A program made the translations under genes and the position numbers. Below the pieces are notes generated by a model. That model saw only the letters and a list, made by a program, of their open reading frames with translations, did not search any database and was not told the DNA's origin. This document shows, piece by piece, positions 20,597-40,142 of a stretch of 64,000 nucleotides of DNA. The stretch is from a phage. The stretch's first letter is position 1. The number at the start of each line of letters is the position of its first letter. Where the stretch lies: the sequence record PX068456.1. One strand, written 5' to 3'.

Positions 20597-20607
20597 GATA
20601 AAAGAAA

Positions 20608-20630
20608 AGGAGCCTAATGGCTCCTTTTTT
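20608..20630. terminator. bidirectional terminator (AAGGAGCCTAATGGCTCCTTTTTT) at the convergence point of the two modules
   Basis: GC hairpin flanked by an A-run upstream and a T-run downstream, between the last plus-strand gene and the last minus-strand gene. Confidence 0.6.
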
Positions 20631-20631
20631 A

Positions 20632-23451
20632 TTAGTCGTAATATTTCAAACCTGTAATAAAGACTGATCCCCAATCGTACAAGCTGGAGTAGTTTATTGT
20701 CCAAGTAGATGCCGTACCAGAGAATACGTCACGAACAACGTCTCCGTTGGAATAGTAAACATCCACACCAGTATGTCCGTTCCTTGGTATAGTGAAGGAT
20801 ACTCCTCCTAAATTTCCAGGATACGTGCAGACATAAGGCGATCCAGCTTTTGATGTTTCTCCTGTAGAAGCACCTTCAAGCTGTGGCAACCAAACTGCAA
20901 GGTTACTAGTACCATCCCCAGCGAAAATCTCCGCACCAGTTGCATCCAAGGCAATTATTTCAAAACTTATGGAGGACTGTTTGGCTATCCCTGTTTTATG
21001 CAGAATAGCACGATACCAACCGTTGCCCATAGATATAATATTAGCTTCACTTCCTGTGAATGTACCTGCTGCTAAATCAAAAGTACCCTCATTAACTTCA
21101 GTTCCTGCTTTTAATCTTAGTTTGGCCTTAGTAATCCCGTTCGCTTTCAAGAAAACAGAGGCAGACCAGTTACGTCCGGCAGATATGTTGTACGCGTTAG
21201 TATATGTTGCAGTTAAGATATGACTACCAGAGGTTGTAGTCGGAGTTAATTTGAATACATTAGCAGTAGTTCCAGCCGGAGAGTTATCAGATGAAGCTGC
21301 AACAGTTAAGTTGGTCTTTACCCACGGGCTTGCACTTGTTAAGGCGTTGTTGACAAAAATTTGTGTAGCTGTGTTAGCTGTTACACGTCTACCTACAGGG
21401 GTAGTGCCAACATACTCCAACGGAGCAACCAAGGTGTTAGTGGCTACAAGTGTATCTCCAGAAGCACGAGCAAAAGAGTTCCCACCATTAACCTTAACAT
21501 CTGATGGAAGAGTTTCTTGCGTCAAATCATAGTCCATCACGACAGGTTTATCTTCTACTTTTCCTGCTGTAACGCTAACATTAAAACGTACTAAAGGAGA
21601 TAACACATCATTTGCTTCGTCATAATATGCAACATCAAATATCGTAGTACCTGCTGCAAAACCATATTGTTCTACTTGATCTGCATAGGTAAACGTATAA
21701 CTGTTCGTATTAAGCGTTTGTTCAGTTAATACAGATGCTGTTAAGACGTTAATATTACGGAAGTAGTGTTTACTATAACCTTGAGCATCCCATGCTAAGA
21801 TTGTATCTTGATTAGGTTGGGAAGTAGCTGTTGCTCCAGTTGGAACAGCCATATCAACCCAAACAGGTGACGTTGATGTTAGGTCTGTACCGTCTGCTGC
21901 TGATTTAGCAAGTTTTGTAGCTGCTGTCTGGTATACAGAAGAAATATAATGGATACGACCATCAATACCTTCTTCATAAACATAACCACTGTAACGTTCA
22001 GCACCATCTACCCAAGAACCAATGATAACATCATCACGTGCCGTAGAGATGGCTCTTTGTACATTTCTGTATTTCTGCCAATCCACACCATTAACTTCTA
22101 CACCATATAGATAAGAACGTCCTAGGATCTGCCAAACAATTTTTGCTTGAGAAGCAGGAACTATTGTACGCATCTTATCAAAGATAGCTATCGTAGCATC
22201 ATGGTAACGTGTAGTGTTACTGTATCTACCTGCAACAGTCGAAGATGCTGATACAGCATCATTTTCACCTTGTCCCCAAATAATCGCTTTAACCTTACTT
22301 GCATAAGGTGTGACTTTAGTGATAAAGTTAGTTAAGCATGGCCCGTCTGCTGTGTTATCCAGATCATACCAGTAGTTGTCTGGTGTACCTGTTCCGGCTT
22401 TATCATCTGCATATTTATCTGCTGCTGACGATCCAGAAGCTGTATTTAACGGGAGAACTTCAGCATTTGCTAAACCACGTTGCGTAGCATATGCATTACG
22501 GGCTGTTGTGCTACTCATTGCTGCTTTATTTGCACCAGATAGTTCTGTAAAGTGTGCATTTACGTTATCTTGTCCAGCAAAGACAATAACTTCTTTAATG
22601 AATGAATCATCTGTAGCTATTGAGTTATTAAAGATAACGGGTGCTGCTTTGGTGCTCTTAACGCTAATTTTAAGGTATGTTGGAGCAAACCCATAAAGAG
22701 GAATAGAGTCAGAGATATCAAAGTAAGCGTAAGTATTCGTGGTTGTTGTAGTCCACTGGACACTGTTATTACTTAAATCTAATACTTCTACAGTATAAGT
22801 ATCACCATCTAGCGGATCAGCTACATCCCAAGCAACACGAACGTCTCCGTAGCTGTTTGCCACGGCTGTTACATTAGAAATAACAGGAACAGCATTAACA
22901 CCTAAATAAGAACTATCAGAGGCCACCACTGTTCCTTGATAAGTTGCAGTGCAACCTATACGGCAACTGCCATCTTTAAGAGCAGTTATTAATCCTGTAG
23001 GACTTACAGTAGCTACTTCTGGATCTGTTGTGGTGTACGTAATTACCATATCTGGAAGGTCTTTAGCACCTTCTGGACTGATTGTAGCAACCAATTGTTG
23101 AGTAGTTCCTGCATCCATAGCAGACAGACTTTCAGTGTACACACTTAATTCTGAAGCATAGCCACCAGATTGATCAGTTAAGACAGCACCTAAATTATTT
23201 TTAGCTGTCATTATTGCATCAAAACCGCCTTCAGCAACAAACTCCATCATACCGTTATTATCTATAACCATTTTGGTATTATCTGAAGATGAAAAAGCTA
23301 TATCAAATAACGCACCATCTTCCGGTGAAACTGTGTATGTCAGTTGCTTTTTACTACCAACTATTGCAATACCAATAGAGGAAGTGGTTATAGATGTAGC
23401 TGTTACTACTGAAGCTGATGTTGTTGACATAAATAAAGGAATAGGATACAT
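20632..23451 (-). CDS. tail fiber/receptor-binding protein with Ig-like domain and SGNH/sialate-O-acetylesterase-like domain
   Basis: 939 aa; N-terminal Ig-like stretch; VIFAGQDNV and AIIWGQGENDA resemble SGNH esterase blocks. Confidence 0.55.
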   Translation of the reverse strand: MYPIPLFMSTTSASVVTATSITTSSIGIAIVGSKKQLTYTVSPEDGALFDIAFSSSDNTKMVIDNNGMMEFVAEGGFDAIMTAKNNLGAVLTDQSGGYASELSVYTESLSAMDAGTTQQLVATISPEGAKDLPDMVITYTTTDPEVATVSPTGLITALKDGSCRIGCTATYQGTVVASDSSYLGVNAVPVISNVTAVANSYGDVRVAWDVADPLDGDTYTVEVLDLSNNSVQWTTTTTNTYAYFDISDSIPLYGFAPTYLKISVKSTKAAPVIFNNSIATDDSFIKEVIVFAGQDNVNAHFTELSGANKAAMSSTTARNAYATQRGLANAEVLPLNTASGSSAADKYADDKAGTGTPDNYWYDLDNTADGPCLTNFITKVTPYASKVKAIIWGQGENDAVSASSTVAGRYSNTTRYHDATIAIFDKMRTIVPASQAKIVWQILGRSYLYGVEVNGVDWQKYRNVQRAISTARDDVIIGSWVDGAERYSGYVYEEGIDGRIHYISSVYQTAATKLAKSAADGTDLTSTSPVWVDMAVPTGATATSQPNQDTILAWDAQGYSKHYFRNINVLTASVLTEQTLNTNSYTFTYADQVEQYGFAAGTTIFDVAYYDEANDVLSPLVRFNVSVTAGKVEDKPVVMDYDLTQETLPSDVKVNGGNSFARASGDTLVATNTLVAPLEYVGTTPVGRRVTANTATQIFVNNALTSASPWVKTNLTVAASSDNSPAGTTANVFKLTPTTTSGSHILTATYTNAYNISAGRNWSASVFLKANGITKAKLRLKAGTEVNEGTFDLAAGTFTGSEANIISMGNGWYRAILHKTGIAKQSSISFEIIALDATGAEIFAGDGTSNLAVWLPQLEGASTGETSKAGSPYVCTYPGNLGGVSFTIPRNGHTGVDVYYSNGDVVRDVFSGTASTWTINYSSLYDWGSVFITGLKYYD

Positions 23452-23468
23452 TTAATCTCCTTAAATAA

Positions 23469-23486
23469 TAAGCCCCCGAAGGGGCT
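23469..23486 (-). terminator. terminator-like hairpin (AAGCCCCCGAAGGGGCTT)
   Basis: GC stem between two tail fiber genes. Confidence 0.4.
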
Positions 23487-23490
23487 TTGA

Positions 23491-25461
23491 TTATGTGCGT
23501 TTAGCAACAATAGCATCCACGTAATCGCCAACACCACAATATGTTAGTTGTAGTATTGTTACTCCGTTAGGATCTGTATTAATATCACTAGAACCAATTA
23601 CTTTGTAAGATGGATCTAAAGTAACAGTACGACCTCCAGTGGCATCTTGGATAAGATAAACTATTGCAGAGAATGGTTTAGGTTTTGTACTATCTTCGAC
23701 ACCAGGCCATGCTTTTATAGTAGCGTTACCAGTAAGATTCAACACATTCATGTTATGTGTTCCTGGAGGTGTCCAGTCACCTGTAACAGAATTGTTGGTA
23801 TATGCTGTAACCTCTATAAAATTAGTTGTTACTTTTGTTGGAACTATATCTTGACCATCTACAGAATTAGTGAGTTCTTCCCATGCCCCATCTTTACGAG
23901 CATAAGTCTTACCATCACTAGGTGCATCTGTGATACTAGGTAGTGTACCTTGAGAAGTCCAGACCGTTGCAGATGTTTTTAAGAACACCTCGCCAGTGGA
24001 GATATTAAAGGCATAATCACCTTGTTTACCATCACTAGAGATTGGATCTGTTGTTTTAACAATCCAAGTTGCACCGTCTGTACCGTTAGTACCAGCGTCA
24101 CCTTTCTCACCTTTTTCACCCTTATCACCTTTCAAACTACCCATATCTACATATTCAGCAGTTTGAGTTTGTTCATTATAGGTGTAAATGTAAAGATGAC
24201 CTGTATCTTCCGTCAGATAAGCATCACCGTAATTGGCTGTAGGAGGAAGCGCACTTGCAGACGCAACGTGTCCTTTTGCAGTGATTGGAGTACCAGCTAA
24301 ACGACCAACATTTGTCCACTCTGTGGCTCCTTGCAACCAGACCCAAAGTTCACTATTGATCAGATAACCATCACCCTCTTCTCCAGTTTGTGGTAGTTCA
24401 GAAGTGTTAGTCAGAATGTCAATAATGGTCAACCCTGCACCAGTTGGCCCCGTCAAGCCTTGTATACCCTGTTCACCTTGATCACCCTTGTCTCCCTTAT
24501 CACCTTTTTCTCCTTTCAGAGAGGCAATATATTCGTCAATAGTACCAACGTTACCAGCATTTAACCAGACTTGATAAGCTGAATCACCAGTGTTACCCTT
24601 ATCTCCTTTGTCGCCTTTATCTCCTTTTGGCCCCACTATAGCACCCATATTAATCCATTCTACACCGTTTGACACGTATAGATATGTACCAACACTCCAT
24701 GCTTGAGATGTGTTTCCATGAGATGCAGAAGGAAGATCTGAAACGGAATTAGCTGCGCCTTGGTAATCAAAACCATTAGCATTGTTACCTGGCACACCTT
24801 GTGGCCCCTCTGGGCCAGGCTCCCCTTTATCACCTTTAATTGAAGCAAGATAGTCTAGTTCTGTACCTTCATTTCCTGCTGCAAGCCATACTTCATAAGC
24901 AGATTTACCTTCTGGCCCCTGTGAGTTTACTTTTCTCCAAGCAGTACCATCCCAAGCATACATATTCTCGCCTACAATCCATGCATCCCCTGCATTGTTT
25001 CCACTTGTAGGTAATTGGTTGGTATTAGATAGTGTCCCTAATAGCTTTAATGGAGCACCTGGATCACCTTTTAAAGAAGCCAACCACTGTGTCTCAGTAC
25101 CTTGGAAACCATTGTCTACGGCAATCTGGTAAGCTGATTTACCAGCTTCTGGGATGGATTCTCTAAGATCTTCAATTTCAGCTTCAATAGCATCTAATTC
25201 TGATTCTATTTGAGCAATGTCATCTGCATTACCCACATTTTTCCAAGCTGTATCTGAAATCCCTCCAGTAGATGTAGGAGTAGAGTTAGCAGGTACAACT
25301 TTAGGTAGAGAACCTTTCCACTGATAGTAGTTACCGTCAGCTTCAAAGAGCAATGCTTCACGAGCATCTCTTAAGGTAAAACCACTTGCAAAACTTCTAC
25401 GCTTTCTATAGCGAGACTCTACCATGTCTGCAATGGCACTATTTGGACGTGTTAAAATCAC
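23491..25461 (-). CDS. tail fiber protein with collagen-like Gly-X-Y repeats
   Basis: GTG start after AAAGGAG; repeated GDKGDKGDKG, GEKGDKGDKGDQGEQGIQGLTGPTG, GDKGEKGEKGDAG tracts. Confidence 0.7.
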   Translation of the reverse strand: MILTRPNSAIADMVESRYRKRRSFASGFTLRDAREALLFEADGNYYQWKGSLPKVVPANSTPTSTGGISDTAWKNVGNADDIAQIESELDAIEAEIEDLRESIPEAGKSAYQIAVDNGFQGTETQWLASLKGDPGAPLKLLGTLSNTNQLPTSGNNAGDAWIVGENMYAWDGTAWRKVNSQGPEGKSAYEVWLAAGNEGTELDYLASIKGDKGEPGPEGPQGVPGNNANGFDYQGAANSVSDLPSASHGNTSQAWSVGTYLYVSNGVEWINMGAIVGPKGDKGDKGDKGNTGDSAYQVWLNAGNVGTIDEYIASLKGEKGDKGDKGDQGEQGIQGLTGPTGAGLTIIDILTNTSELPQTGEEGDGYLINSELWVWLQGATEWTNVGRLAGTPITAKGHVASASALPPTANYGDAYLTEDTGHLYIYTYNEQTQTAEYVDMGSLKGDKGEKGEKGDAGTNGTDGATWIVKTTDPISSDGKQGDYAFNISTGEVFLKTSATVWTSQGTLPSITDAPSDGKTYARKDGAWEELTNSVDGQDIVPTKVTTNFIEVTAYTNNSVTGDWTPPGTHNMNVLNLTGNATIKAWPGVEDSTKPKPFSAIVYLIQDATGGRTVTLDPSYKVIGSSDINTDPNGVTILQLTYCGVGDYVDAIVAKRT

Positions 25462-25479
25462 TTTACTACTCCTTTTATA

Positions 25480-25497
25480 AAGGGGCTTTCGCCCCTT
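25480..25497 (-). terminator. terminator-like hairpin (AAGGGGCTTTCGCCCCTT)
   Basis: GC stem. Confidence 0.4.
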
Positions 25498-25501
25498 TTA
25501 A

Positions 25502-27916
25502 TTAAGCATTATTGACAGTAACAAAAGTAACAGGGTTCAGAGCTTTAATTTGTGTATTCTCTGCTGTAGGTGTTACAATTGGATCTGCAATATCTATTGT
25601 GTACAAACTATTTGTCACATATGTAGCACGTGCTATAGTTGTCACAAGATCGCCGCCATTTGCACCTGCACCTGGAATAACAATCTTAGTACCTGCTGCT
25701 TTAGCGTAGCCATTACTAGCCCAGTTTAAAGCATTAGACTGTAGATAGGTTTGACCTGTAACAGTTGCTTTTATTTTCTCGTTGTCACTAAAGAAAGCAC
25801 CACCTACTGTAACAACATGTTTTTTACCGCTGGCACAATGAATAACTGTTCCAGTAGGGAAGTCACGCCCACCTGGGAATTCATCATAATCTGTAAAATA
25901 TTGTTCAGAAATAGTGGTTAAAACTGGCCCACGATGACCTGTACCATCAACAGCAGTTGGAACACCAAAGTTATTTCCAACCTGATCGCAACGATCCGTG
26001 TAGATTTTAGCAAAGGAAACTGTTGTTTCATCTCCGCTAAGTGCTGTACATCCTACCCACTTCATATATGTGAATTGGCTGCGAGCATAGAAACCGCCAC
26101 CACTTCCTTCTCCGCTTCCGTGTTGACCAATAAAGTCAATACTACGGCAACGAATATTATTAAAAGTAGAGCTAGATGGTAGCCCACGCCATTTAAAATC
26201 ATTACAATTGATGTTACTAACAATTGTAGAGTTTTCCCAGGCGTCTGATCCAGCCGTTGCAATCTCAATCGAAGATTCTGGAATATCCAAATTCTTAATT
26301 GTAAAGTTAATTGGTGGCCCCGCATATCTTCCACCGTTAACACCCCAGTCAATAAAGACCATGCGTGTTGAAACAGACGGATCATTAAGCAGATAACCAG
26401 TTAAACCATCAACTTCAAAGTCTTGGCATCCGTATAATGCAACACCACAAGTAGTTAAACCTGTACCTGTTGAAACTGCTGTGTTAGGATAAACTTCGTT
26501 ATCACGTATTGTGAAGTTTTTACCCATTTCAACGTGTAGACATTGACGGCAATTGTAAACTCTATTTCCAACGATACTGAAGTTACGTACATATTGTGAA
26601 TCAGGAGCATCAACACCATATGGGCCACTACCTGCTACACCAATACCAATACCCCAGTTTGCACCTTGTCCAGAAGCATCTACGTTAGCAATGTGGTTAT
26701 TCTCGATGATCAAACCTTCAGTGTAGTGTCTTTGAACTACGTTAAGTTCAATAGCATCACCTTTAATATCGTGAATATAGTTGTTAGAGTAACGCCCATA
26801 GGTCATTACTTCTCCAGTACCTTGTTGCAGGATCGCATATTTACAACCATACATTTCGTTGTAACTGAAGTCCAACGTACCTTCACTTGTCATTGCTTGC
26901 ATTAAGAATGCTGCTGTAGATGTTGCGTTGGAGAAGATATTACGATAGAATCGGCAATCACCACCTAACATCTTAACATAACATTTTTCAAAGCGAACGT
27001 TTTCAATCCAACAGGACACAGTAGAAATCATTGTTCCACCGTTACCAGTGAATGTACCACCATACCAACGAATACCAGACATAGCAATTGAGCTTGTGAA
27101 TCTATAATTCTTATCTGCTCGTACTTGAATGTTATTCGTGTTAGCGAAAGTAATGGTTTTTAGAATTGCTTGAGTATCATCGGTAACTCCATCACCAATT
27201 GCACCAAACTGCTCAGGCGTTACAAAGTATTGAGCTTGTAACAGGTTGCCTCCAGATGGAAGACCAACCATTGCTGCACCAGTGGTAGATGACAAAAGGT
27301 TTTTCTCTACGTAAGAAGTAGAGGCTGTTGTTTTACCAATAAAAGCAAACAATTTGTTAGGTAGACCAGTAGACGGATCTAAACCTAATGGTTCTGCCAG
27401 AATAATTTTACTATCTTTGATAGTAAATGCTTCACCCTGAATCTGAATTACACCGTTAATGGTGACAATAGCATTATCAAAGATATAAGGAGGACTGATT
27501 TCTGTTTCATATCCTGTAGCACCTTTAAAATACCAAGGATACACATCTGAAGCTAACTGTTCAGTTTTAAGAGCATACAGAGTCCAGTTACTGTCTCCTA
27601 CAGGTGTACCCTGCATAGGTACAGGGTTCGCAGTAGTGGCAGATGGAGCATAGTAGTACCCACTCAAGATACCGTTTTCAAAATAACGTAACTGGTTAAA
27701 TACAGTTTCAGTTGATCCTGCTGACCAAGCAACAGGACTCTTAAAGAAGAAGTTATCAACAAGTGCTTTACGCAGTGTAGGTATTAAACCTGTTTCGGTT
27801 TCTACAGTTGCTGTAGCATCCCCGTTAATAACATCATGCATCTGGTTAGACGAGAATATAACCAGATCAACACCTTGTTCTAGTGTCGTAGCAGGATATG
27901 TTGGAAAATTCGCCAT
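25502..27916 (-). CDS. tailspike protein with pectate-lyase-like parallel beta-helix (candidate depolymerase)
   Basis: 804 aa; QFGAIGDGVTDDTQAI motif typical of beta-helix glycosidases/lyases; repetitive N/G-rich strands. Confidence 0.6.
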   Translation of the reverse strand: MANFPTYPATTLEQGVDLVIFSSNQMHDVINGDATATVETETGLIPTLRKALVDNFFFKSPVAWSAGSTETVFNQLRYFENGILSGYYYAPSATTANPVPMQGTPVGDSNWTLYALKTEQLASDVYPWYFKGATGYETEISPPYIFDNAIVTINGVIQIQGEAFTIKDSKIILAEPLGLDPSTGLPNKLFAFIGKTTASTSYVEKNLLSSTTGAAMVGLPSGGNLLQAQYFVTPEQFGAIGDGVTDDTQAILKTITFANTNNIQVRADKNYRFTSSIAMSGIRWYGGTFTGNGGTMISTVSCWIENVRFEKCYVKMLGGDCRFYRNIFSNATSTAAFLMQAMTSEGTLDFSYNEMYGCKYAILQQGTGEVMTYGRYSNNYIHDIKGDAIELNVVQRHYTEGLIIENNHIANVDASGQGANWGIGIGVAGSGPYGVDAPDSQYVRNFSIVGNRVYNCRQCLHVEMGKNFTIRDNEVYPNTAVSTGTGLTTCGVALYGCQDFEVDGLTGYLLNDPSVSTRMVFIDWGVNGGRYAGPPINFTIKNLDIPESSIEIATAGSDAWENSTIVSNINCNDFKWRGLPSSSTFNNIRCRSIDFIGQHGSGEGSGGGFYARSQFTYMKWVGCTALSGDETTVSFAKIYTDRCDQVGNNFGVPTAVDGTGHRGPVLTTISEQYFTDYDEFPGGRDFPTGTVIHCASGKKHVVTVGGAFFSDNEKIKATVTGQTYLQSNALNWASNGYAKAAGTKIVIPGAGANGGDLVTTIARATYVTNSLYTIDIADPIVTPTAENTQIKALNPVTFVTVNNA

Positions 27917-28257
27917 TAATTTTTGTCCTTACTTTGTGTGCGCTTCGTAATCTCCTCTAGCATTAATTGAACAGGAGCATTTTTTAAATCCATTATTTTT
28001 TCAATCTTCTGTTCTAAGGCAGTATTATTTGCCATTAATGTAGAGTTGATCTGGTTAAGCATTTGAGCAAGTTCTGCTTTGGTAGCATAAGTGGATTCAA
28101 CAAACACCAACTTCTTTTCTAGTTCACGGTATTTGTCTTCCATTTTATCCAAATCACTTGCTATATCATCTATCTTCTGTTTGAAGACCACCCAGATTAC
28201 ACCAATAAGAGGGATAATCGCCTCTTTAGCGATATCCCATACTTCTGTTAGCTCCAT
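27916..28257 (-). CDS. small membrane-anchored coiled-coil protein
   Basis: one N-terminal hydrophobic helix (IIPLIGVIWVVF) followed by coiled coil. Confidence 0.4.
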   Translation of the reverse strand: MELTEVWDIAKEAIIPLIGVIWVVFKQKIDDIASDLDKMEDKYRELEKKLVFVESTYATKAELAQMLNQINSTLMANNTALEQKIEKIMDLKNAPVQLMLEEITKRTQSKDKN

Positions 28258-28266
28258 ACATTACCC

Positions 28267-28818
28267 CTATTTCTTAGGTCTTGTAGGCCAAGTTATATTA
28301 GGTGCATCTTCAACGTTAATTTGAATCAGTGTTGCACGATATAGTTTAACTTTTCCTAACCAATCTTTTTGTTCTTCAGATAAACCTTGTAATTCCTCTA
28401 AATCTTGAATTGCAGATATTTGATTTGTGGCCCAAGTTAATTCTTTTTCCATTTTAAGGTTGGCATCTTCTATTGCAAACCCATTATGAGAAATAAACTT
28501 ACCATTGTCATATTTCCACGATCCTAGATTGCTTTCTTCTTCTATCTTATCTGGAACATTGTATGTTACAAGAACAGTAAGACCAGCGGGAAAATATGTA
28601 GAAACATCTTTCGTAGCTGCAACAACTACATTGTTGTGATCTAGAGTTAAGAAATAGGCATCAGGGTAATTTTTGGATAAATATTTCTGAATTTCGTACC
28701 AATCATTACCATCTTTATCTTTAAGAAAACCAGCACCTATTGAAAGATAGATGACATTTTCTTCTGTCAATTCTGGTTGATATAGTTCAAAGCCAGTGTA
28801 AATAACATCTTTTTTCAT
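28267..28818 (-). CDS. hypothetical structural/assembly protein
   Basis: ORF in tail fiber region. Confidence 0.4.
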   Translation of the reverse strand: MKKDVIYTGFELYQPELTEENVIYLSIGAGFLKDKDGNDWYEIQKYLSKNYPDAYFLTLDHNNVVVAATKDVSTYFPAGLTVLVTYNVPDKIEEESNLGSWKYDNGKFISHNGFAIEDANLKMEKELTWATNQISAIQDLEELQGLSEEQKDWLGKVKLYRATLIQINVEDAPNITWPTRPKK

Positions 28819-28830
28819 GTGTTCTCCTTA

Positions 28831-29811
28831 CTAAACGTTGGTTACTGTTATCCACCTACCATTAATGTAATATTGTAGTGGGGCAGACCAATACCAAGCA
28901 CCACGAAGTTCTTTCTTATCACCAAAACCCCAGCCTGTGATCACGTGACCAGCATAGAAAGGAGATTCAGATACACCAGCTTTAATACGTGTACCTAAAC
29001 GGATAGAAGACACAACAGAGGAAACTCTATTGTTAATGTTATTAATTTGGCCTTGCAAGTTACTATTAACGTTGTTAATATTATTTTGCAGTGTACTTTG
29101 CAATGAGTTTAGTCTTGAGTTAAGATAATCTAATCTTACAAGAGCATTACCATTGCCAGTATCTTGACCAGAATTAGAACGAGGATTGTCTATTAAAACA
29201 TAACCTGCATCATACAAACGGACTCCACAAGATGTTCCTCCAGTAGATGGATTTATTCTATAAATATAGAGTTGACCACCTGCACCTGGTTCAGAAGACA
29301 TATTGCCTACTGTTTGTCCATTATAGTTTCTAAAAAATAATGTTGCAGGATCTGTAGCACCTGTACCACAAGTGTAAATATCACCTGCATAGATAGCACC
29401 ACCATTATCACGCTTAACAAGGACATTCCCTACAACTTGGTTTGATGTTGCGTCTGTAATGTTAGCTGATAAGTGATTATGGCTGTTATCTACGACTTGA
29501 ATAGATAATGTTACAGCAGCATTACCATTCCATGTAACTTCACCTGTAGCATCACCTGCCATTGTAATTTTAGTACCGACTATAGGAAGATATGTAGTAG
29601 GCAATGTTGGGAAGAATTCATCTTGCATATAACGAATCCAAGACCCAATATTGTTTAAGATCCAGTTCATTTCTTCACAAGTCATAATCTGACCAAAGTC
29701 CATACCGACATTACGGATGGTTTCTTTTGGTCTAATCTTGTTTGTGTTTCCCGTTCCTGGGAGGGTTACTGTTTGTGTCGCCCAGTCAGGGTAGTATTGT
29801 GGCTTTGCCAT
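28831..29811 (-). CDS. tail fiber-like protein
   Basis: N/Q/S-rich C-terminal region; position. Confidence 0.4.
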   Translation of the reverse strand: MAKPQYYPDWATQTVTLPGTGNTNKIRPKETIRNVGMDFGQIMTCEEMNWILNNIGSWIRYMQDEFFPTLPTTYLPIVGTKITMAGDATGEVTWNGNAAVTLSIQVVDNSHNHLSANITDATSNQVVGNVLVKRDNGGAIYAGDIYTCGTGATDPATLFFRNYNGQTVGNMSSEPGAGGQLYIYRINPSTGGTSCGVRLYDAGYVLIDNPRSNSGQDTGNGNALVRLDYLNSRLNSLQSTLQNNINNVNSNLQGQINNINNRVSSVVSSIRLGTRIKAGVSESPFYAGHVITGWGFGDKKELRGAWYWSAPLQYYINGRWITVTNV

Positions 29812-29824
29812 TAAGAGTAACTCC

Positions 29825-30454
29825 TTATTCTATTTGAGCTATCAGCATAGTCATTCGCCCTGTATCATCTCCTTCAGCCTCTGTGTAAAGAGAACCTAAA
29901 CCACCTATACCATGAGGTGGCTTTGTGGCATAATAGGAAGTGAAACCAAAGGCTGCACCCGCTTTCGCACCTAAGCGATAACTACTTAGGATCGGGAAAA
30001 CGTTAAGTAACTGTGCTACTGCCTGATCGGATTGTAGACACAAATTATAAAAGAATACGTCGAATGTTTTATTTAATCCAACGTATGTATTGATCGTTTC
30101 TTTTTCTGTTCCTGTAAAACGAGCGAACATATCAATGATATCATCTCGCGTACCAGAAGACGCAACACGATAAGCCCTGATTTTTAATATTGTACGATAC
30201 TCTTCATCCGTAGCACCATTTCTCTCCATCCCCATCTCTTCACCAATAAGATCTAAATACTTACCAGTTGCAGTAGAGATTAAGCGGTGTTTGGCAAGAT
30301 AGATCATTGCCTGATCTATCTTTTGTTTTTCGCTAGAAATGATATAGAGTAGTTTGACAATGTTCGGAGAAGATTTAAAATCTTCAATCAGTAGGTCTTT
30401 AACATCTTCATTGATACTATCCCACGTTGTCACATGGTCAACACTCACTGCCAT
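29825..30454 (-). CDS. baseplate/tail component (putative)
   Basis: position only. Confidence 0.35.
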   Translation of the reverse strand: MAVSVDHVTTWDSINEDVKDLLIEDFKSSPNIVKLLYIISSEKQKIDQAMIYLAKHRLISTATGKYLDLIGEEMGMERNGATDEEYRTILKIRAYRVASSGTRDDIIDMFARFTGTEKETINTYVGLNKTFDVFFYNLCLQSDQAVAQLLNVFPILSSYRLGAKAGAAFGFTSYYATKPPHGIGGLGSLYTEAEGDDTGRMTMLIAQIE

Positions 30455-30456
30455 TT

Positions 30457-31944
30457 TTAGACTCCGTACTCGTAGGAAATATTATCAAGGTCAAAGGATG
30501 GTACAACATTGTACGCTGGAGTGATATCTCCCTCATTATATTTACTGTCATCCTCAGTATTAAGTTTAACATAAACACGGAGAGAAGTCAAGCGTCCGAA
30601 CGCAAGTGCAGAATAAATTACACCTTTTATCTGGTCGTTAGTTACTGTTGACCCTAATTCAAAATAAGCCTGTAAGTTTGCAAGAGCAGAAACAATATTT
30701 TCTCTTTCTGTTGTACTTAACACACTACCATTACCAGTTTGATATACCAGTTTAAGTGAGTATTCCGCATTATCACCAGGAGAAAAACGAATTACTTCTT
30801 GACCACCATCTTCTGTTACGATAGTAATTGCTGTCGTACCATAAGTTAATGTGTTAATAGGCTTAGTATTATAAATAACCTGTGCAACTTCTTCTGCTGT
30901 ACCACCGTACACAATAGTTTGGAATGTCATAGCTGGAGCATGTTCCTGATCGTGTAGTGTAGGGTTATCATAAATCTTAACCTTTGTCACACCATCTGTC
31001 AGTAATAGAGCTTTAACAATAGCAGCACGAGTAGCAGCATTAGCTTCATCCATATTATCATTGAAACGAGAACGGAATTCTGCATCTGTTTCAACATCTG
31101 TACCTGGAGAGAACGGATAGAAGTTACCTGTATCTAAAAAGCCTGTAAACGTTGAAGAAATACCTGTAATACTTTCTGTACCTACTGGATTATAACCAAC
31201 ATCTGAACACGTAACTGGAATTTCACTCCATTTTGTACCAATTGCAATGGATGCATAAAATTTCACTGGTGTTACTAGACCTATTGGGTTAACATTATCT
31301 TCTGGATTATAACCCATATAAACATTACTAGCATCATTCCATACTAAAGCACGATCTGTTGTTGATACGTTAGCTTTAATGAAATTCGTGAGATCTACAA
31401 TAAAGTTTGTATTGCTAGGACTTAGTGTTTTACTGTTAAGACCACCATCAATAGCACTTTGAATGTAGAAAGTAATAGAAGTTTCACCAGAAGCTGTTGC
31501 GTTTGCTTTAGAAATGGTATATGCTCCAATCTTAGCATTCAACATTGTTGGTGCACTGACATAATATGTCAAATCGTTATCGGCATTAAAATAAACATCT
31601 GTGCTTAGTTCATAAGTCCAAGCTGCCTTATTGTTAGATTTAACATAAGCATAACCACTACCAGCAGAAGCAGCTTTACGATAAAAACCTCTTTTAGAGA
31701 AGATTTCATCAAGGTAAATACCTTCTGCACCATCTAAGGTTTGGGTATTGTAAACACCTTGCATACCTTCCCAAAGGGTGTAATCTGTATATGCAATAAT
31801 ACGAAACAGTTGACCAAAGACAGTATCTTCAGATGTAGCTGTATCTGCACCGAAAGTGTTTTTCAATGCTGTCATATAATTATTTAAAATATCATCAAAC
31901 GTTGGAATGACAAAACCAGCATCTGTTAAACCATAATCTGCCAT
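30457..31944 (-). CDS. baseplate component (putative)
   Basis: 495 aa; position only. Confidence 0.35.
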   Translation of the reverse strand: MADYGLTDAGFVIPTFDDILNNYMTALKNTFGADTATSEDTVFGQLFRIIAYTDYTLWEGMQGVYNTQTLDGAEGIYLDEIFSKRGFYRKAASAGSGYAYVKSNNKAAWTYELSTDVYFNADNDLTYYVSAPTMLNAKIGAYTISKANATASGETSITFYIQSAIDGGLNSKTLSPSNTNFIVDLTNFIKANVSTTDRALVWNDASNVYMGYNPEDNVNPIGLVTPVKFYASIAIGTKWSEIPVTCSDVGYNPVGTESITGISSTFTGFLDTGNFYPFSPGTDVETDAEFRSRFNDNMDEANAATRAAIVKALLLTDGVTKVKIYDNPTLHDQEHAPAMTFQTIVYGGTAEEVAQVIYNTKPINTLTYGTTAITIVTEDGGQEVIRFSPGDNAEYSLKLVYQTGNGSVLSTTERENIVSALANLQAYFELGSTVTNDQIKGVIYSALAFGRLTSLRVYVKLNTEDDSKYNEGDITPAYNVVPSFDLDNISYEYGV

Positions 31945-32189
31945 TAGTTATCCTCCTTATCAGGGGCAGGTGATCTGCCCCAACGTAAATCTATTAAATT
32001 CTTCATTAGTCTGGATGGTGTGATCATAAAAACAAAAGCCCAGCCCATCCATTCAGGAATTTCTTTATCAATTCCCAAATAAATAAACATACTGGACATA
32101 ACAATCATACCAATAGCATTCCAAACTTTAGTAGAGCTGACTTTATTATCAGGATATGTACAAAACATTCCGATTAAAAACTTTCTCAT
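31944..32189 (-). CDS. small two-helix membrane protein (holin-like candidate)
   Basis: 81 aa; two hydrophobic segments (NAIGMIVMSSMFIYLGI, WMGWAFVFMI), charged C-terminus. Confidence 0.4.
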   Translation of the reverse strand: MRKFLIGMFCTYPDNKVSSTKVWNAIGMIVMSSMFIYLGIDKEIPEWMGWAFVFMITPSRLMKNLIDLRWGRSPAPDKEDN

Positions 32190-32494
32190 AGTGCGTTCTC
32201 ATTACTTTTTAAATCACGAGATACAGCTAATTCCCCAAGGTCTACAGAACCCGCTGAATGCACAAGTACAGCAGCACTAAGACTAATGGCAGTAGTACCT
32301 GGGGCAATATCAGCAGGTAGGGAATACGCCCTTTGCGTCTCCTTATCATAGATAACCTTATACCCACCCAAATCCACACCAACTGAGAAGTAAATAACCT
32401 CATTCTGCTTAACGCCAAAATGCCGAGCAATGGCTTGCTTATTGGTTAATATTCCAGTGGAACCTTTACCGCCTTGGGAGAATAATTCGTTCAT
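32186..32494 (-). CDS. hypothetical protein
   Basis: ORF. Confidence 0.4.
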   Translation of the reverse strand: MNELFSQGGKGSTGILTNKQAIARHFGVKQNEVIYFSVGVDLGGYKVIYDKETQRAYSLPADIAPGTTAISLSAAVLVHSAGSVDLGELAVSRDLKSNENAL

Positions 32495-32518
32495 AAGTAC
32501 CTCTTTGTTTTTCTAGGA

Positions 32519-32538
32519 AACCCCTCCGAAGAGGGGTT
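32519..32538 (-). terminator. terminator-like hairpin (AACCCCTCCGAAGAGGGGTT)
   Basis: GC stem. Confidence 0.4.
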
Positions 32539-32543
32539 AGTGA

Positions 32544-34616
32544 TTAAATAACATCAATAAGAGACATCCTTATAGCTTTCTGTGTAAGACCTGTTGTCCA
32601 TCCTACTTCTGTTGCGTCTGCCGAGCCTATTTCCCAAACACGCATCTCTGCTATTTCTATGGTATCAGTAGCATTAGTCACTGGGCCTACCGTTATCGTG
32701 AACGATGTGGCCGTGTCGTCGATAATAAAGTTTATTATAGAAGTATTCCATCCTGACGCGGTAGACTGGTAAGTCACACTACCGTTTACTTTTACTGTTA
32801 TCGGCCCCGCGAAAGTAACGGCGAGAGCAAATCTTGTTCTTGAGTTAGGTTTAGAAAGCGATATTGACGCTTTATCATAATTGCCGCCAGTTGAGCATTT
32901 TAAAGACGATCCACTACGCACTGCCGCAGTAGACGTGCTCCATACTCCGTTTATATATGTCCAGCTATAAGGTGCATTTCCCGTGGTATTGAGGGTGTTA
33001 AATGTTCCAGCTAAACCAAGTTTATCTGTATTCTGAAATGCAGAATACATTTTGAAAAGGTCGTCATCATACGCCGTTGTTTTTGCGATAGTGCCTTGGA
33101 ACATGACAGACTCTGTTAGACGACCTGTGGTTGTTGTTCCGAGTTGTGCATCAAGCACCGAGTCACTGCATATAATGCCGGAAATATTCGCTCGCAGTAC
33201 CCTTGCTCTATTTAAGGTGCTGAGCACTGGTGTGTAACCACCTGACCCGGCTTCGTGAGCCTCAAATCCTTTAATATTTAACTTATAAATACTTCCTGTG
33301 AAATTATCTGCGCGGAAGTAAGCGCCACGAATAAGTTCCCCATAAGCATTAGATATGTTCAGTGAGTAAACTTCCGTAGACCCTTCCAAGTGGAACATGC
33401 TGTCCTGCATATTTTCAGCGACAGGGTTCTCGATGATAATATCTCTCCCTGGTCCTACATACATAAAACCTTTATACTGAAACCCGTGTATATTGCGTAA
33501 ACGCATTACAAAAGTCCCCCAGTACGAACTACCTCGCTGGATAGCGTACCCATAACCAGTGTTGGCATTCTTACCAGTTAATCCATAAGCCTCAAAGTCG
33601 TCAACATCTATGAGTACGTTACCGCCTTGCGGTCTAAAACCACCCTGTTTAAATCCAAAGCTACGACACCCTTTCATCCTGAAGTGGGTGGTATTGACAA
33701 CGTTTACCGCAACATCTGATGTATCAGCAGCGGCTGCTGATGCTTCGGTGCTATATGTGCGTCCGAACTGTATATTTTCCAGGGTAATTGAACGGGTAAA
33801 CCCTGTGCTATCAGGGTTGCCGTCGTCCACTCCGATATTGAATACTCTGTCGTCGTCAGTCCAGATAGTCCCTCCAGCATTCTCATCATATACTGCTGGT
33901 CTGTCGCAATATATGCGAATCTTATCGCATGTATTTTTACTCAATTCAGTAGTGGACAGTTTAAAAGTCATCCATGAAGGTAAAAGAATATTTCCAATAT
34001 TATTGGCTTTAGCATATGCCAAAGCCGCGTTAAATTCAGTATCTGCGAGATAATCTTTATTAGCATTTGCCGGTATGAAATCTGCAAGGGATAGCACATC
34101 TCTTAATGAAAATTTACTATTCCTTAATGGTAAAACTGATGAAGTCAGATCTGCTCTTAATGATGCATCACCAACACTAACCCAAGCACCTAGAGCAATC
34201 CCACCAGTAGCGTCTGGTGTTGAGTCAGAAGCAACCGTTTTCGGCAGATCACCACCCCACGTATAGCACTGCCCACCAGCGATATGCCAAACAGCATCAG
34301 TATTATTATTTAATGTAGCACCCTCCTCAAAGCTACCATCAACAAGTGTTAACCCCGCTTCAGCAAGACTACGACACCACTGTTCACGATCATTAAGAAG
34401 ATTGTTATTCAACTCTTCCTGAACAGTATTACCATTTGAGGATTGTATTAAATCTGCTCCATCTGTATCTTTCAACTGGGTGGCTAAAACCACCCCAGTG
34501 TCAGTAAGAAAGTTAGAAACTGTGCTTTTAACAGTTTTATCAGGTTGATCTAAAACCAGGTAATCTGAACCATTAACTTTTGATGTTTCCGGTAAATTAG
34601 TAATTGTAGTTGACAT
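32544..34616 (-). CDS. tailspike/tail fiber protein (second beta-helix-like RBP)
   Basis: 690 aa; shares an N-terminal W.G.LPK.V...STP..TGGI...AW motif with the collagen-like fiber. Confidence 0.5.
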   Translation of the reverse strand: MSTTITNLPETSKVNGSDYLVLDQPDKTVKSTVSNFLTDTGVVLATQLKDTDGADLIQSSNGNTVQEELNNNLLNDREQWCRSLAEAGLTLVDGSFEEGATLNNNTDAVWHIAGGQCYTWGGDLPKTVASDSTPDATGGIALGAWVSVGDASLRADLTSSVLPLRNSKFSLRDVLSLADFIPANANKDYLADTEFNAALAYAKANNIGNILLPSWMTFKLSTTELSKNTCDKIRIYCDRPAVYDENAGGTIWTDDDRVFNIGVDDGNPDSTGFTRSITLENIQFGRTYSTEASAAAADTSDVAVNVVNTTHFRMKGCRSFGFKQGGFRPQGGNVLIDVDDFEAYGLTGKNANTGYGYAIQRGSSYWGTFVMRLRNIHGFQYKGFMYVGPGRDIIIENPVAENMQDSMFHLEGSTEVYSLNISNAYGELIRGAYFRADNFTGSIYKLNIKGFEAHEAGSGGYTPVLSTLNRARVLRANISGIICSDSVLDAQLGTTTTGRLTESVMFQGTIAKTTAYDDDLFKMYSAFQNTDKLGLAGTFNTLNTTGNAPYSWTYINGVWSTSTAAVRSGSSLKCSTGGNYDKASISLSKPNSRTRFALAVTFAGPITVKVNGSVTYQSTASGWNTSIINFIIDDTATSFTITVGPVTNATDTIEIAEMRVWEIGSADATEVGWTTGLTQKAIRMSLIDVI

Positions 34617-39669: not shown

Positions 39670-40142
39670 TAAATCACTCCTGCCATCACTAAACTACCTA
39701 TCCAGGTAGCTCCATTATCATAACTAACAAATTCAAAAATATCTGTAGCTCCCTGTTTATAACTCAAAACAGGAGCGCGACCAAAACTCCATTTAACAGA
39801 TTGAGGCCACGTTACTTTATTTGCTCCACTGCCTTGACGTAGGGATAGCGTAAAGTTTTGAACAATGTTAGTTGTAACTGGAACATTACTAAATGAAATA
39901 CTGCAAGTTGGACTAGATAAAGTGGCAGAGAAATACTCTGCCGTGCTAATATCTAAAGCTAGGGTATTTGTGACAGTACCCCTTGCAGAAAGACGATTTC
40001 GTGTAACACCAGCACCCGCAAGAAGAACACGTAATGATGTTTTCTTAGTGATGCCTGATTGATCTGTTACAAAATAATCTGTGTCTGAAACAGATGTTGT
40101 TACAGGTAGATCAGACACCTTGATTGTAGTTAAATCAGCCAT
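39669..40142 (-). CDS. baseplate component (putative)
   Basis: position. Confidence 0.35.
   Translation of the reverse strand: MADLTTIKVSDLPVTTSVSDTDYFVTDQSGITKKTSLRVLLAGAGVTRNRLSARGTVTNTLALDISTAEYFSATLSSPTCSISFSNVPVTTNIVQNFTLSLRQGSGANKVTWPQSVKWSFGRAPVLSYKQGATDIFEFVSYDNGATWIGSLVMAGVI

Follow-up and report, generated by a model that had tools for sequence, protein, structure and literature searches.

Does a phage that carries several tail fibers and spikes mount them on one common dock and aim them in turn at one glycan? The question is raised by a gene block within a window of 64,000 nucleotides of phage DNA, in which the first-pass annotation had read four fiber and spike genes, two of them with a shared N-terminal attachment motif, and had proposed an esterase and a lyase acting in sequence. 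All four ORFs are present where it had placed them, on the minus strand like every feature located below: ORF1 at 20632-23451, ORF2 at 23491-25461, ORF3 at 25502-27916, and ORF4 at 32544-34616. Its domain calls for the four proteins were correct at fold level when checked with Pfam, Foldseek, and AF2. A megablast search returned 28 records that match 80% or more of the region with 95-99% identity, and those inspected were all Justusliebigvirus; gene order is one-to-one with phi92 gp140-gp153 and also with PaulScherrer, KMB37, and ECGD1. Judged by its sequence, the source phage is a Justusliebigvirus (phi92-like) E. coli myophage. The region is the known "Swiss-army-knife" set of tail fibers and tailspikes of phi92-like phages and is ordinary overall; the sole new item in it is the rare head on the ORF4 spike. 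We put at about 80% the probability of the reading developed here: a phi92-type host-recognition module with a multi-glycan display, with tiers of anchor, TD2 domain (PF18668), and head in the ORF4 slot, and with an SGNH domain in ORF1 that most likely has no esterase role.

A single minus-strand late-gene block encodes the baseplate wedge together with up to eight fiber and spike proteins, and their joint display would allow one virion to engage several surface glycans. "At least four" receptor-binding proteins was thus right as to several distinct fibers and spikes but an undercount, since the module adds orthologs of gp140, gp141, gp142, and gp147. The gp147 ortholog (28831-29811; assigned by synteny and annotation; PHROG 4465) is a short tail fiber; gp147 is fiber III in the cryo-EM of phi92 (PMC13450770), and by published inference the ortholog would touch the LPS core. 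The gp142 ortholog (34625-36784) combines Calx-beta, an N4-sheath N-domain, and a TIM barrel (Pfam PF23845, E 1.3e-81; PF23844, E 5.6e-21); its PDB matches are N4 gp65 for the N-domain and N4 gp64 for the TIM barrel, and it has a GMSHY motif at 35759-35773. Genetics identified gp142 as the NGR-glycan-binding protein of the genus, and NGR dependence is also a trait of N4 (bioRxiv 10.64898/2026.04.02.716166); the ortholog would bind the NGR glycan. The gp141 ortholog (36793-39669; 958 aa; PHROG 2871, "tail protein") gave no Pfam and no PDB sequence match. The gp140 ortholog (39669-40142; 157 aa; PHROG 9017) is a small tail fiber protein whose residues 9-46 align with residues 5-42 of the ORF4 anchor (BLASTP, 37% identity, E 7e-4 in a 15-protein database).

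The closest known system is the multivalent adsorption apparatus of phi92, as far as it is described in Schwarzer et al. 2012 and PMC13450770, with which the present phage, known from its genes alone, has gene-for-gene synteny. ORF3 is ~98% identical to gp150, the first 200 residues of ORF2 are near-identical to gp151, and the two phages have the same 54-residue anchor in the ORF4 slot. They differ in that phi92 carries an endosialidase in this slot (gp143) where the present phage has TD2 and a beta-helix spike, in that the phi92 ortholog of ORF1 is fragmented and ends at residue 628 whereas ORF1 is intact at 939 aa, and in that phi92 lacks an orphan TD1 ORF found here. Three sets of fibers are seen on the phi92 virion by cryo-EM, two of them assigned: fiber I to gp143, an inferred assignment, and fiber III to gp147 (PMC13450770).

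ORF2, the ortholog of gp151, is a protein of 656 aa with a GTG start and a full-length match to PHROG 15437, "tail fiber protein." The reading of it as a collagen-repeat fiber was borne out: residues 210-465 (24067-24834) hold four Gly-X-Y runs of 6, 6, 9, and 7 triplets, a run of 9 was matched in 0 of 2000 shuffles, and the Pfam Collagen score of 34.4 bits (E 1.9e-8) exceeds the cut-off of 27.2. Between the runs lie three copies of G(K/D)SAY(Q/E)...LAS(L/I)KG. Where such a fiber sits on the virion bears on the count of receptor-binding proteins, as ORF2, and perhaps ORF1, could instead be a fiber or decoration protein of the head, neck, or whiskers, leaving fewer baseplate receptor-binding proteins in the interval. 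The collagen-like runs fit this alternative, as does a weak foldon-like Fibritin_C match in ORF2 (E 5e-4 to 1.4e-3, below cut-off). In phi92, gp151 and gp140 are reported to be similar to gp52, a head spike protein of phage Pa223, and the predicted models of gp150 and gp151 do not fit the fiber II density (PMC13450770). The N-terminal Ig domains of ORF1, moreover, are like those that lambda gpV-type major tail proteins carry (by the phi92 annotation and PHROG "major tail protein" matches). Nevertheless, the ORF1 and ORF2 genes lie within the tail-fiber block directly after the colanidase gene, the TD2 domain that ORF2 carries is not known outside tailspikes and tail fibers, and the ORF2 C-terminus matches tail fiber PHROG families; we consider a placement away from the baseplate unlikely.

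The proposed attachment motif, Y.W.G.LPK.V...STP..TGGI...AW, does occur in both proteins; translated in six frames, the whole window contains it exactly twice, at 25243-25326 (ORF2 residues 45-72) and 34182-34265 (ORF4 residues 118-145). Both lie within matches to Pfam PF18668 (Tail_spike_N; cut-off 25 bits), at the very start of ORF2 (residues 11-77; 25231-25431; 75.2 bits, E 4.2e-21) and at residues 93-150 of ORF4 (34167-34340; 67.1 bits, E 1.5e-18). Direct alignment of the N-terminal parts of ORF2 and ORF4, a check that had been suggested, gave 38% identity over 84 residues (BLASTP, E 2e-10), and PDB sequence matches of the domain are to CBA120 TSP1/3/4 and G7C gp63.1 (4OJ5, 5W6F, 5W6H, 4QNL). 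On these alignments, the motif common to ORF2 and ORF4 is the TD2 domain of CBA120/G7C-type tailspikes, a case of true homology and a resemblance well above what chance would give.

ORF4 (690 aa) is a tailspike in an exchangeable slot, placed by synteny with phi92 gp142-gp143-gp144. Its residues 1-54 (34455-34616) are a genus-conserved anchor, near-identical in phi92 gp143, PaulScherrer, ECGD1, and KMB37, and they are the piece common to all five ORF4-slot alleles compared, two of which are without TD2. DNA identity of ORF4 to phi92 is restricted to nt 1-152. The stretch nt 1-470 has 90% identity to same-genus phages, a 48-kb siphovirus contig matches nt 358-2073 at 89.5%, and the two stretches overlap at codons 120-157. 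Because these identities meet there, the crossover looks to have fallen inside the TD2 motif, a placement based on one close donor-like contig together with the distribution of allele end-points: similarity stops at residues 157-161 in 25 of 38 alleles.

These boundaries bear on whether TD2 is a common baseplate dock, with ORF2 and ORF4 plugging into equivalent sockets and only their downstream parts differing. The domain is shared by both proteins near the N-terminus; in ORF2 it begins at residue 11, leaving no room ahead for an anchor, so that it could be the docking surface of ORF2; and the GenBank note for phi92 describes the gp151 N-terminal domain as a potential binding domain. However, PF18668 is absent from phi92 gp143 and from the KMB37 allele, though both occupy the ORF4 slot and share the 54-residue N-terminus. 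Solved structures show very different N-terminal anchors ahead of the domain, and in 71 other proteins it starts 8 to 379 residues from the N-terminus, after unrelated anchors. In Ackermannviridae, furthermore, the docking contact is TD1 to XD3 and not TD2 (bioRxiv 10.1101/2024.03.21.586117). The dock is for us quite improbable. Of the baseplate-docking module with swapped heads that had been proposed, then, the homologous module and the swapped heads stand, whereas the role of dock is not supported. Two anchor-bearing alleles lack the motif, the apparent crossover lies inside it, and in 25 of 38 alleles divergence sets in immediately behind it; TD2 therefore has the look of a portable neck and a joint for recombination, not of a proven dock. 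The spike in this slot would have three tiers, a genus-fixed 54-residue anchor that presumably attaches to the virion, a linker with TD2, and a head. Since TD2 is conserved across unrelated phages, it would offer a landing site for homologous recombination, through which heads would move between myo-, sipho-, and podoviruses. The principle of head exchange is already published for this genus (PMC10408124).

The same comparison separates the module from the branched complex of Kuttervirus CBA120 (TSP1-4) and Gamaleyavirus G7C (gp63.1/gp66). The TD2 domains of ORF2 and ORF4 are homologous to CBA120 TSP1 residues ~99-160, and the predicted beta-helix head architecture of ORF4 is shared with the CBA120 tailspikes. 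TSP1 residues 1-95 have their homolog in a separate ORF of 102 aa (32186-32494) that consists of TD1 (D1) of CBA120-type tailspikes and nothing else (4OJ5 residues 1-95, E 4e-49; 4QNL residues 1-94, E 7e-44). Spikes of the CBA120 type begin with a TD1-TD2 tandem, whereas here the two domains are on different polypeptides: ORF2 begins with TD2, and in ORF4 a different N-terminus of 90 residues, with the genus-specific anchor, precedes TD2. The orphan TD1 ORF, which has a 157-nt internal deletion in ECGD1 and KMB37 and is absent from phi92, is probably the relic of a lost second spike gene. Pfam detected no T4 gp10-like XD branching domains in the module proteins scanned, with N-terminal parts searched to E 1, a search that a remote fold-level relative might escape. 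With no XD domains detected by Pfam and no TD1-TD2 tandem in the module proteins, there is no sign that spikes branch off one another as in an Ackermannviridae-type complex.

The ORF4 head (residues 165-690; 32547-34124) is predicted by AF2 and Foldseek to be a right-handed beta-helix with a C-terminal CBM-like beta-sandwich. The AF2 monomer model has a mean pLDDT of 68 and a pTM of 0.49, with the C-terminal domain at ~90 and strands throughout residues 174-484 at a pLDDT of mostly 60-89. Foldseek matched CBA120 TSP1/3/4, Klebsiella K2 depolymerases, and the Sf6 and HK620 spikes with a probability of 1.0, as well as CBM22/35. The earlier call of a second spike at this position thus agrees with the structure prediction, a model of moderate confidence. 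O-antigen tailspikes of the P22/Sf6/HK620 type and Klebsiella capsule depolymerases share this predicted build of right-handed beta-helix and C-terminal beta-sandwich, but the ORF4 head has no sequence similarity to any characterized spike. Its invariant acidic residues are D264, D265, D298, D301, E342, E401, E427, E452, and E455, none of which was placed in an active site.

The head is rare. Searches of 50,697 phage records, 5,426 E. coli genomes, and 185,579 species genomes gave no match to it, and IMG/VR contained two relatives at 25-27% identity. Its homologs (P0001-P0011) are all metagenome-derived and come from sipho-, podo-, and Mu-like phages. The same head is found on a Mu-like Aeromonas prophage, and a 56%-identical head forms the tailspike of a P22-like podovirus, fused to the P22 head-binding domain. 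ORF4 would be the serotype-specific spike in the one freely exchanged slot, and an O-antigen or a capsule is the most likely target for binding and cleavage by its beta-helix head. The head may found an uncharacterized depolymerase-spike family that is exchanged among four virion architectures.

ORF1 (939 aa) is the ortholog of phi92 gp152/gp153, is 97.5% identical to its PaulScherrer and KMB37 orthologs, and matches PHROG families annotated "tail protein." Its domains run in the order Ig-like, FN3-like, SGNH-fold (N4 gp65-like), FN3-like, and a beta-sandwich C-terminal extension. The Ig-like domain is Big_2 (residues 113-170; 22942-23115; PF02368, E 6.8e-14, 52 bits against a cut-off of 22.8). 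The SGNH/SASA-type esterase-fold domain (residues ~285-525; 21877-22599) matches in family profiles N4 gp65 (9LC0_I, E 5e-57), 2APJ, 7KMM, 1ZMB, and 9H4U, and by Foldseek GDSL esterases, PatB, Axe2, and PAF-AH at a probability of 1.0 and N4 gp65 at E 3e-17; FN3 domains were matched as well. In the SGNH domain the model has a confidence of 70-90 for most blocks of 10 residues but falls below 60 in places. Pfam SASA is matched by 19 of 22 relatives of the domain at E up to 0.01, and ORF1 itself falls below the gathering score (16.8-17.1 bits against 24.8, E ~0.005). The C-terminal third of the protein, a variable extension (residues 629-939; 20635-21567) with a PHROG family of its own, 11600, and a low-confidence, beta-sandwich-rich model, is missing in ECGD1, which has a 628-aa form, and in phi92, where the ORF1 ortholog is split over three frames with a 74-aa deletion. 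Directly 3′ of the ORF1 stop, where two directions of transcription converge, is a terminator-like hairpin (20605-20628; a 10-bp stem followed by a T run; a consensus match only).

The Ig and SGNH folds read at the outset for this fiber are there, but its catalytic-looking blocks lack a conserved active-site residue: the block I catalytic serine is replaced by Asp295 (FAGQ-D-NVNAH; codon verified at 22567-22569). Among ~71 aligned family domains this column has S in 53, D in 4, and A in 3, with GQDN in ORF1. An Asp295 equivalent is kept in all six of the myoviral orthologs aligned (41-85% identical), and N4 gp65-like fused proteins have Ser. Blocks II (ASGSS) and III (WGQGEND) and the block V His (RIHY) of ORF1 match the family consensus, and in a neighboring lineage blocks II, III, and V have decayed further. 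The ORF1 domain matches both SGNH-like repeats of gp65 in the N4 sheath (gp65/gp64; PDB 9LC0, 9YF4), the first of which has Ser at the nucleophile position where ORF1 has Asp. N4 carries these domains in a single fused sheath protein of 1382 aa that surrounds the podovirus tail, whereas here they are split between ORF1 and the gp142 ortholog, at opposite ends of a myovirus fiber module. Because the nucleophilic Ser is replaced by Asp, the ORF1 SGNH domain is most likely a glycan-binding or structural module and not an acetylesterase. It may be a "dead-esterase lectin," a glycan binder descended from an N4 gp65-like esterase, or else an Asp-based variant, as the aligned sequences suggest. Asp can be the nucleophile in other hydrolase superfamilies, and ORF1, which keeps blocks II, III, and V, might still be active to some degree.

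ORF3 (804 aa), the gp150 ortholog in PHROG 6117, "colanic acid degradation," is a colanic-acid-degrading tailspike. Over residues 180-804 it matches the crystallized phi92 gp150 (PDB 6E0V) along the whole length at 1417 bits, with about a dozen differences. According to PMC13450770, which cites Xu et al. 2025, this colanidase hydrolyzes the beta-1,4 glucose-fucose bond, and recombinant gp150 alone degrades colanic acid. The spike had been described as pectate-lyase-like; the beta-helix holds, but the relation to pectate lyase is one of fold only (a weak Pfam match, E 0.009), and hydrolysis by gp150, as reported by way of that citing source, speaks against a lyase. ORF3 would cut colanic acid, an activity shown for its phi92 counterpart.

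The suggested sequence of deacetylation and depolymerization found no functional link between ORF1 and ORF3, as the ORF1 ortholog is broken in phi92 and shortened in ECGD1; in both phages the annotation gives the colanidase gene its full 2415 nt. Colanic acid carries O-acetyl groups, and this, the SGNH fold, and retained blocks II (GSS), III (WGQGEND), and V (His) speak for ORF1 as an active O-acetylesterase that strips acetyls from colanic acid or another glycan ahead of the ORF3 depolymerase. Deacetylating tail fibers do exist (e.g., G7C gp63.1, as cited in PMC8594841), but with Asp for Ser in block I, a SASA score under the cut-off, a phi92 ortholog in three frames with a 74-aa deletion beside an annotated intact gp150, colanic acid degraded by recombinant gp150 alone (Xu et al. 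2025, via the citing source), and a closest structural relative, N4 gp65, that is a receptor-binding sheath protein, we regard such an esterase as very improbable.

Two further readings, an ORF1 SGNH domain of the dead-esterase-lectin or Asp-variant kind and an ORF4 head that represents an uncharacterized depolymerase family, have together, in our estimate, slightly less than even odds. The Ser-to-Asp change cautions against the label "tail carbohydrate esterase" for ORF1 orthologs, and fold-level similarity by itself is poor ground for pathways of deacetylation plus cleavage. ORF4 provides, at nucleotide resolution, a clean worked example of a broad-host-range phage re-arming one spike slot, in which the anchor stays fixed and the source of the head may be a siphovirus, a podovirus, or a Mu-like prophage. 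For the engineering of phi92-like phages, new heads would be graftable after residue 157-161. If the family assignment of the ORF4 head is true, these spikes would recognize a glycan not yet linked to any phage, because the head is absent from the sequenced phage genomes searched and yet is swapped among four virion architectures.

The fibre region is a known phi92-type multivalent adsorption module. A megablast search of 50,697 phage records returned 28 with at least 80% coverage of the region at 95–99% identity. [quoted passage not shown] The orthologs are the small tail fibre protein gp140 (157 aa; 39669–40142, minus strand); the tail protein gp141 (958 aa; 36793–39669, minus), which had no match in a PDB sequence search; gp142 (719 aa; 34625–36784, minus); ORF4 in the gp143 slot (690 aa; 32544–34616, minus); gp144 (81 aa; 31944–32189); the baseplate wedge proteins gp145 and gp146 (30457–31944 and 29825–30454); the short fibre gp147 (28831–29811, minus); the chaperone gp148 (28267–28818); gp149 (113 aa; 27916–28257); gp150, here ORF3 (804 aa; 25502–27916, minus); gp151, here ORF2 (656 aa, GTG start; 23491–25461, minus); and gp152/gp153, here ORF1 (939 aa; 20632–23451, minus). 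ORF1 to ORF4, the four fibre and spike genes of the first-pass annotation, are present exactly where it placed them, all on the minus strand. Its count of at least four receptor-binding proteins is correct, though an undercount, and the general statement was already known from phi92. [quoted passage not shown] A sigma-70 promoter scan performed at shuffle level (42 found, 42.5 expected) and was disregarded. Outside the module, the DNA polymerase gene (14700–17279, plus strand; 859 aa) lacks an intein; the annotation of its PaulScherrer ortholog includes one, inserted as 735 nt, and the KMB37 gene has the same length as here, 2580 nt.

We examined the motif Y.W.G.LPK.V...STP..TGGI...AW, which had been taken for a common baseplate-docking module of ORF2 and ORF4 with swapped heads. 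The 64-kb window, translated in six frames, contains exactly two copies of it, at 25243–25326 and 34182–34265. The two copies are homologous and not a chance likeness: Pfam PF18668 (Tail_spike_N) scores 75.2 bits in ORF2 and 67.1 bits in ORF4 against a cut-off of 25, and the two proteins align directly with 38% identity over 84 residues (E = 2e-10). PF18668 is the second tandem N-terminal domain (TD2, or D2) of CBA120 TSP1, TSP3, and TSP4 and of G7C gp63.1; the docking contact in Ackermannviridae is made by TD1 with XD3 of the partner spike (bioRxiv 10.1101/2024.03.21.586117). A docking role for the motif was not borne out at the ORF4 slot. Residues 1–54 of ORF4 (MSTTITNLPETSKVNGSDYLVLDQPDKTVKSTVSNFLTDTGVVLATQLKDTDGA) are near-identical in all five gp143-slot alleles aligned, and two of these (the phi92 endosialidase and KMB37) lack PF18668, the anchor running directly into unrelated sequence. 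Since the anchor alone is common to the five alleles, it is this 54-residue segment, rather than the motif, that is fixed at the slot and, judging from the alignment, likely attaches ORF4 to the virion. The N-terminal parts of ORF1, ORF3, ORF4, and gp140 gave nothing useful in Pfam and, notably, no gp10-like branching domain.

The swapping of heads, by contrast with the docking role, was upheld. At the DNA level, nucleotides 1–470 of ORF4 are ∼90% identical to PaulScherrer and ECGD1, the match to phi92 covers nucleotides 1–152 only, and that to KMB37 covers nucleotides 1–178 only. Nucleotides 358–2073 match, with 89.5% identity, a siphovirus-like contig of 48 kb whose genes include those for a tape measure protein and an NlpC/P60 tail protein. 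This tract and the one in common with PaulScherrer and ECGD1 overlap at codons 120–157, precisely the motif; of 38 database alleles with the same anchor, 25 lose similarity to ORF4 at residues 157–161. Moreover, PF18668 lies anywhere from 8 to 379 residues from the N terminus, behind unrelated anchors, in 71 other proteins. The motif is thus best seen, on these comparisons, as a portable neck domain; conserved across families, PF18668 would be the joint for head exchange. The general anchor-versus-head principle has been published, including for Justusliebigvirus (PMC10408124).

The head of ORF4, downstream of TD2, is a rare, uncharacterised spike head. None of the 50,697 phage records covers ORF4 beyond its first 32%. 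Bacterial genomes were searched for the head with negative results, both in 5,426 complete E. coli genomes and in 185,579 species-representative genomes, and so yielded no prophage clue to the host glycan. Pfam did not match it even at E values up to 10, and IMG/VR contained just two relatives (25–27% identity). A large protein collection yielded eleven, among them proteins from phi92-like metagenomic contigs (P0001, 95% identical to ORF4), from the siphovirus-like contig (P0002, 92% over the head), from a P22-like podovirus in which the head is fused to a P22 head-binding domain (P0006, a tailspike, 56%), and from an Aeromonas metagenome-assembled genome, adjoining Mu-type baseplate genes (P0007, 55%). 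The AlphaFold model (mean pLDDT 68) has a right-handed β-helix at residues ∼174–484 and a confident C-terminal β-sandwich (pLDDT ∼90); its Foldseek matches include CBA120 tailspikes, Klebsiella K2 depolymerases, the Sf6 and HK620 spikes, and CBM22/CBM35 modules. Because of this predicted fold and the P22-like context, the head is most likely a depolymerase for O-antigen or capsule.

In ORF2, PF18668 (residues 11–77) is the very first element, and there it may still have a docking role. A coiled-coil stretch follows, together with three copies of a G(K/D)SAY...LAS(L/I)KG unit and four Gly-X-Y runs of 6, 6, 9, and 7 triplets. The longest was reached in none of 2000 shuffles, so the proposed collagen repeats hold. 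phi92 gp151 is near-identical to ORF2 over the first 200 residues, and the C terminus gave nothing useful in Pfam. ORF2 and ORF1 are separated by 39 nt, and in this gap is a GC-rich terminator-like hairpin (23470–23487, minus strand), so ORF1 may be expressed at a lower level than the other genes of the fibre operon or separately from them.

A 102-aa ORF at 32186–32494 (minus strand) consists of nothing but TD1 (D1) of CBA120 TSP1 and G7C gp63.1, with ∼88% identity to residues 1–95 of PDB entry 4OJ5 (E = 4e-49). In ECGD1 and KMB37 a 157-nt deletion shifts its reading frame, and phi92 lacks it altogether. It is probably what remains of a second tailspike gene that was lost. That it forms a split spike N terminus with the TD2-first ORF2 was rejected as unsupported, because relatives without an intact TD1 ORF have an unchanged ORF2 and the genes lie 7 kb apart. 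Separately, residues 9–46 of gp140 (39669–40142, minus strand) resemble residues 5–42 of ORF4 (38 residues, 37% identical; E = 7e-4 against a database of 15 proteins), a hint that both proteins attach to sites of one kind. In PHROG 7760 an ORF4-like N terminus is joined to a gp140-like C terminus.

ORF1 had been described as an Ig-domain fibre with an SGNH-esterase-like domain. Pfam confirmed the Ig domain (Big_2). The isolated esterase domain scored 17 bits, short of the 24.8 that SASA requires, so that Pfam alone did not find it, and a word-indexed protein search with the domain alone returned just two near-identical fragments. HMMER, run exhaustively over 1.84 billion representatives, found 78 relatives. 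SASA matches 19 of the 22 sampled, their profile matches N4 gp65 (E = 5e-57) and the esterases 2APJ, 7KMM, and 1ZMB, and the AlphaFold model of ORF1 (pLDDT 58 overall; 70–90 in most 10-residue blocks of the SGNH domain, with dips below 60) gave Foldseek matches to N4 gp65, GDSL esterases, PatB, Axe2, and PAF acetylhydrolase. The description therefore stands at the level of fold but not of the active site, where the catalytic Ser is replaced by Asp295 (codon 22567–22569); the lack of conserved active-site residues was an outcome that the first-pass annotation had itself named as refuting its reading. The family consensus of block I is F-A-G-Q-S-N-A-x-G-H, with Ser at the nucleophile position in 53 of ∼71 aligned domains; ORF1 has FAGQDNVNAH. 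Asp occupies the position in every myoviral ortholog examined, including those with 85% identity and an Av-05-like group (41–43%, GGDN) in which blocks II, III, and V are further decayed. Ser is kept in N4 gp65-like fused proteins, and blocks II (GSS), III (WGQGEND), and V (His) are intact in Justusliebigvirus. A sequencing error was rejected because every ortholog inspected has the same codon. Residual esterase activity is rather unlikely; the best reading of the sequences is that the domain would be an esterase-derived glycan-binding or structural module.

The isolated C-terminal part of ORF1 had no Pfam match even at E values up to 10, and this 311-residue extension is optional, because the phi92 and ECGD1 forms end at residue 628. 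ECGD1 has an intact 628-aa form; in the phi92 reference (NC_023693, 19321–20983; annotated as gp152 and gp153) the ortholog lies in three frames and lacks residues 199–272 (74 residues), which reflects either old sequencing errors or true loss of the gene in the type phage as a pseudogene. The gene looks dispensable from these comparisons. Elsewhere, on Stephanstirmvirinae-sized contigs (143–156 kb), the Ig-like N terminus (55–73% identical; P0233–P0251) is joined to RCC1/β-propeller sequence instead of SGNH, making the ORF1 locus a second exchangeable slot.

ORF3, called a pectate-lyase-like β-helix, aligns over residues 180–804 end to end with phi92 gp150 (PDB 6E0V, ∼98% identity). The fold is right, but “lyase” is wrong: gp150 is reported to hydrolyse the β-1,4 glucose–fucose bond of colanic acid (Xu et al. 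2025, via PMC13450770). The suggestion that ORF1 and ORF3 deacetylate and then depolymerise a glycan in sequence found no support and has four points against it. The ORF1 domain lacks the nucleophile Ser, its nearest structural relative is the N4 receptor-binding sheath, and relatives with a colanidase gene annotated as full length have a broken or shortened ORF1 gene. Recombinant gp150 reportedly degrades colanic acid by itself (Xu et al. 2025, via PMC13450770). The published receptor logic of the genus also differs: the gp142 ortholog binds NGR glycan (bioRxiv 10.64898/2026.04.02.716166), the short fibre contacts the LPS core, and the variable spike deals with O-antigen or capsule. GMSHY, the reported signature of NGR-glycan binding common to the gp142 ortholog and N4 gp65, is present at 35759–35773 in the window’s gp142 ortholog (34625–36784, minus strand), which lies just beyond the interval of the first-pass annotation. 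N4 gp65 resembles gp142-like parts (N-domain and TIM barrel) fused to ORF1-like parts (SGNH), whereas in this phage these lie at opposite ends of the fibre module.

The first-pass observation is thus confirmed, and its interpretation in part. The window contributes a new allele at the exchangeable spike slot. To the known module the analysis adds a crossover inside PF18668, a conserved Asp replacing the SGNH nucleophile, and an orphan TD1 ORF decaying across relatives.
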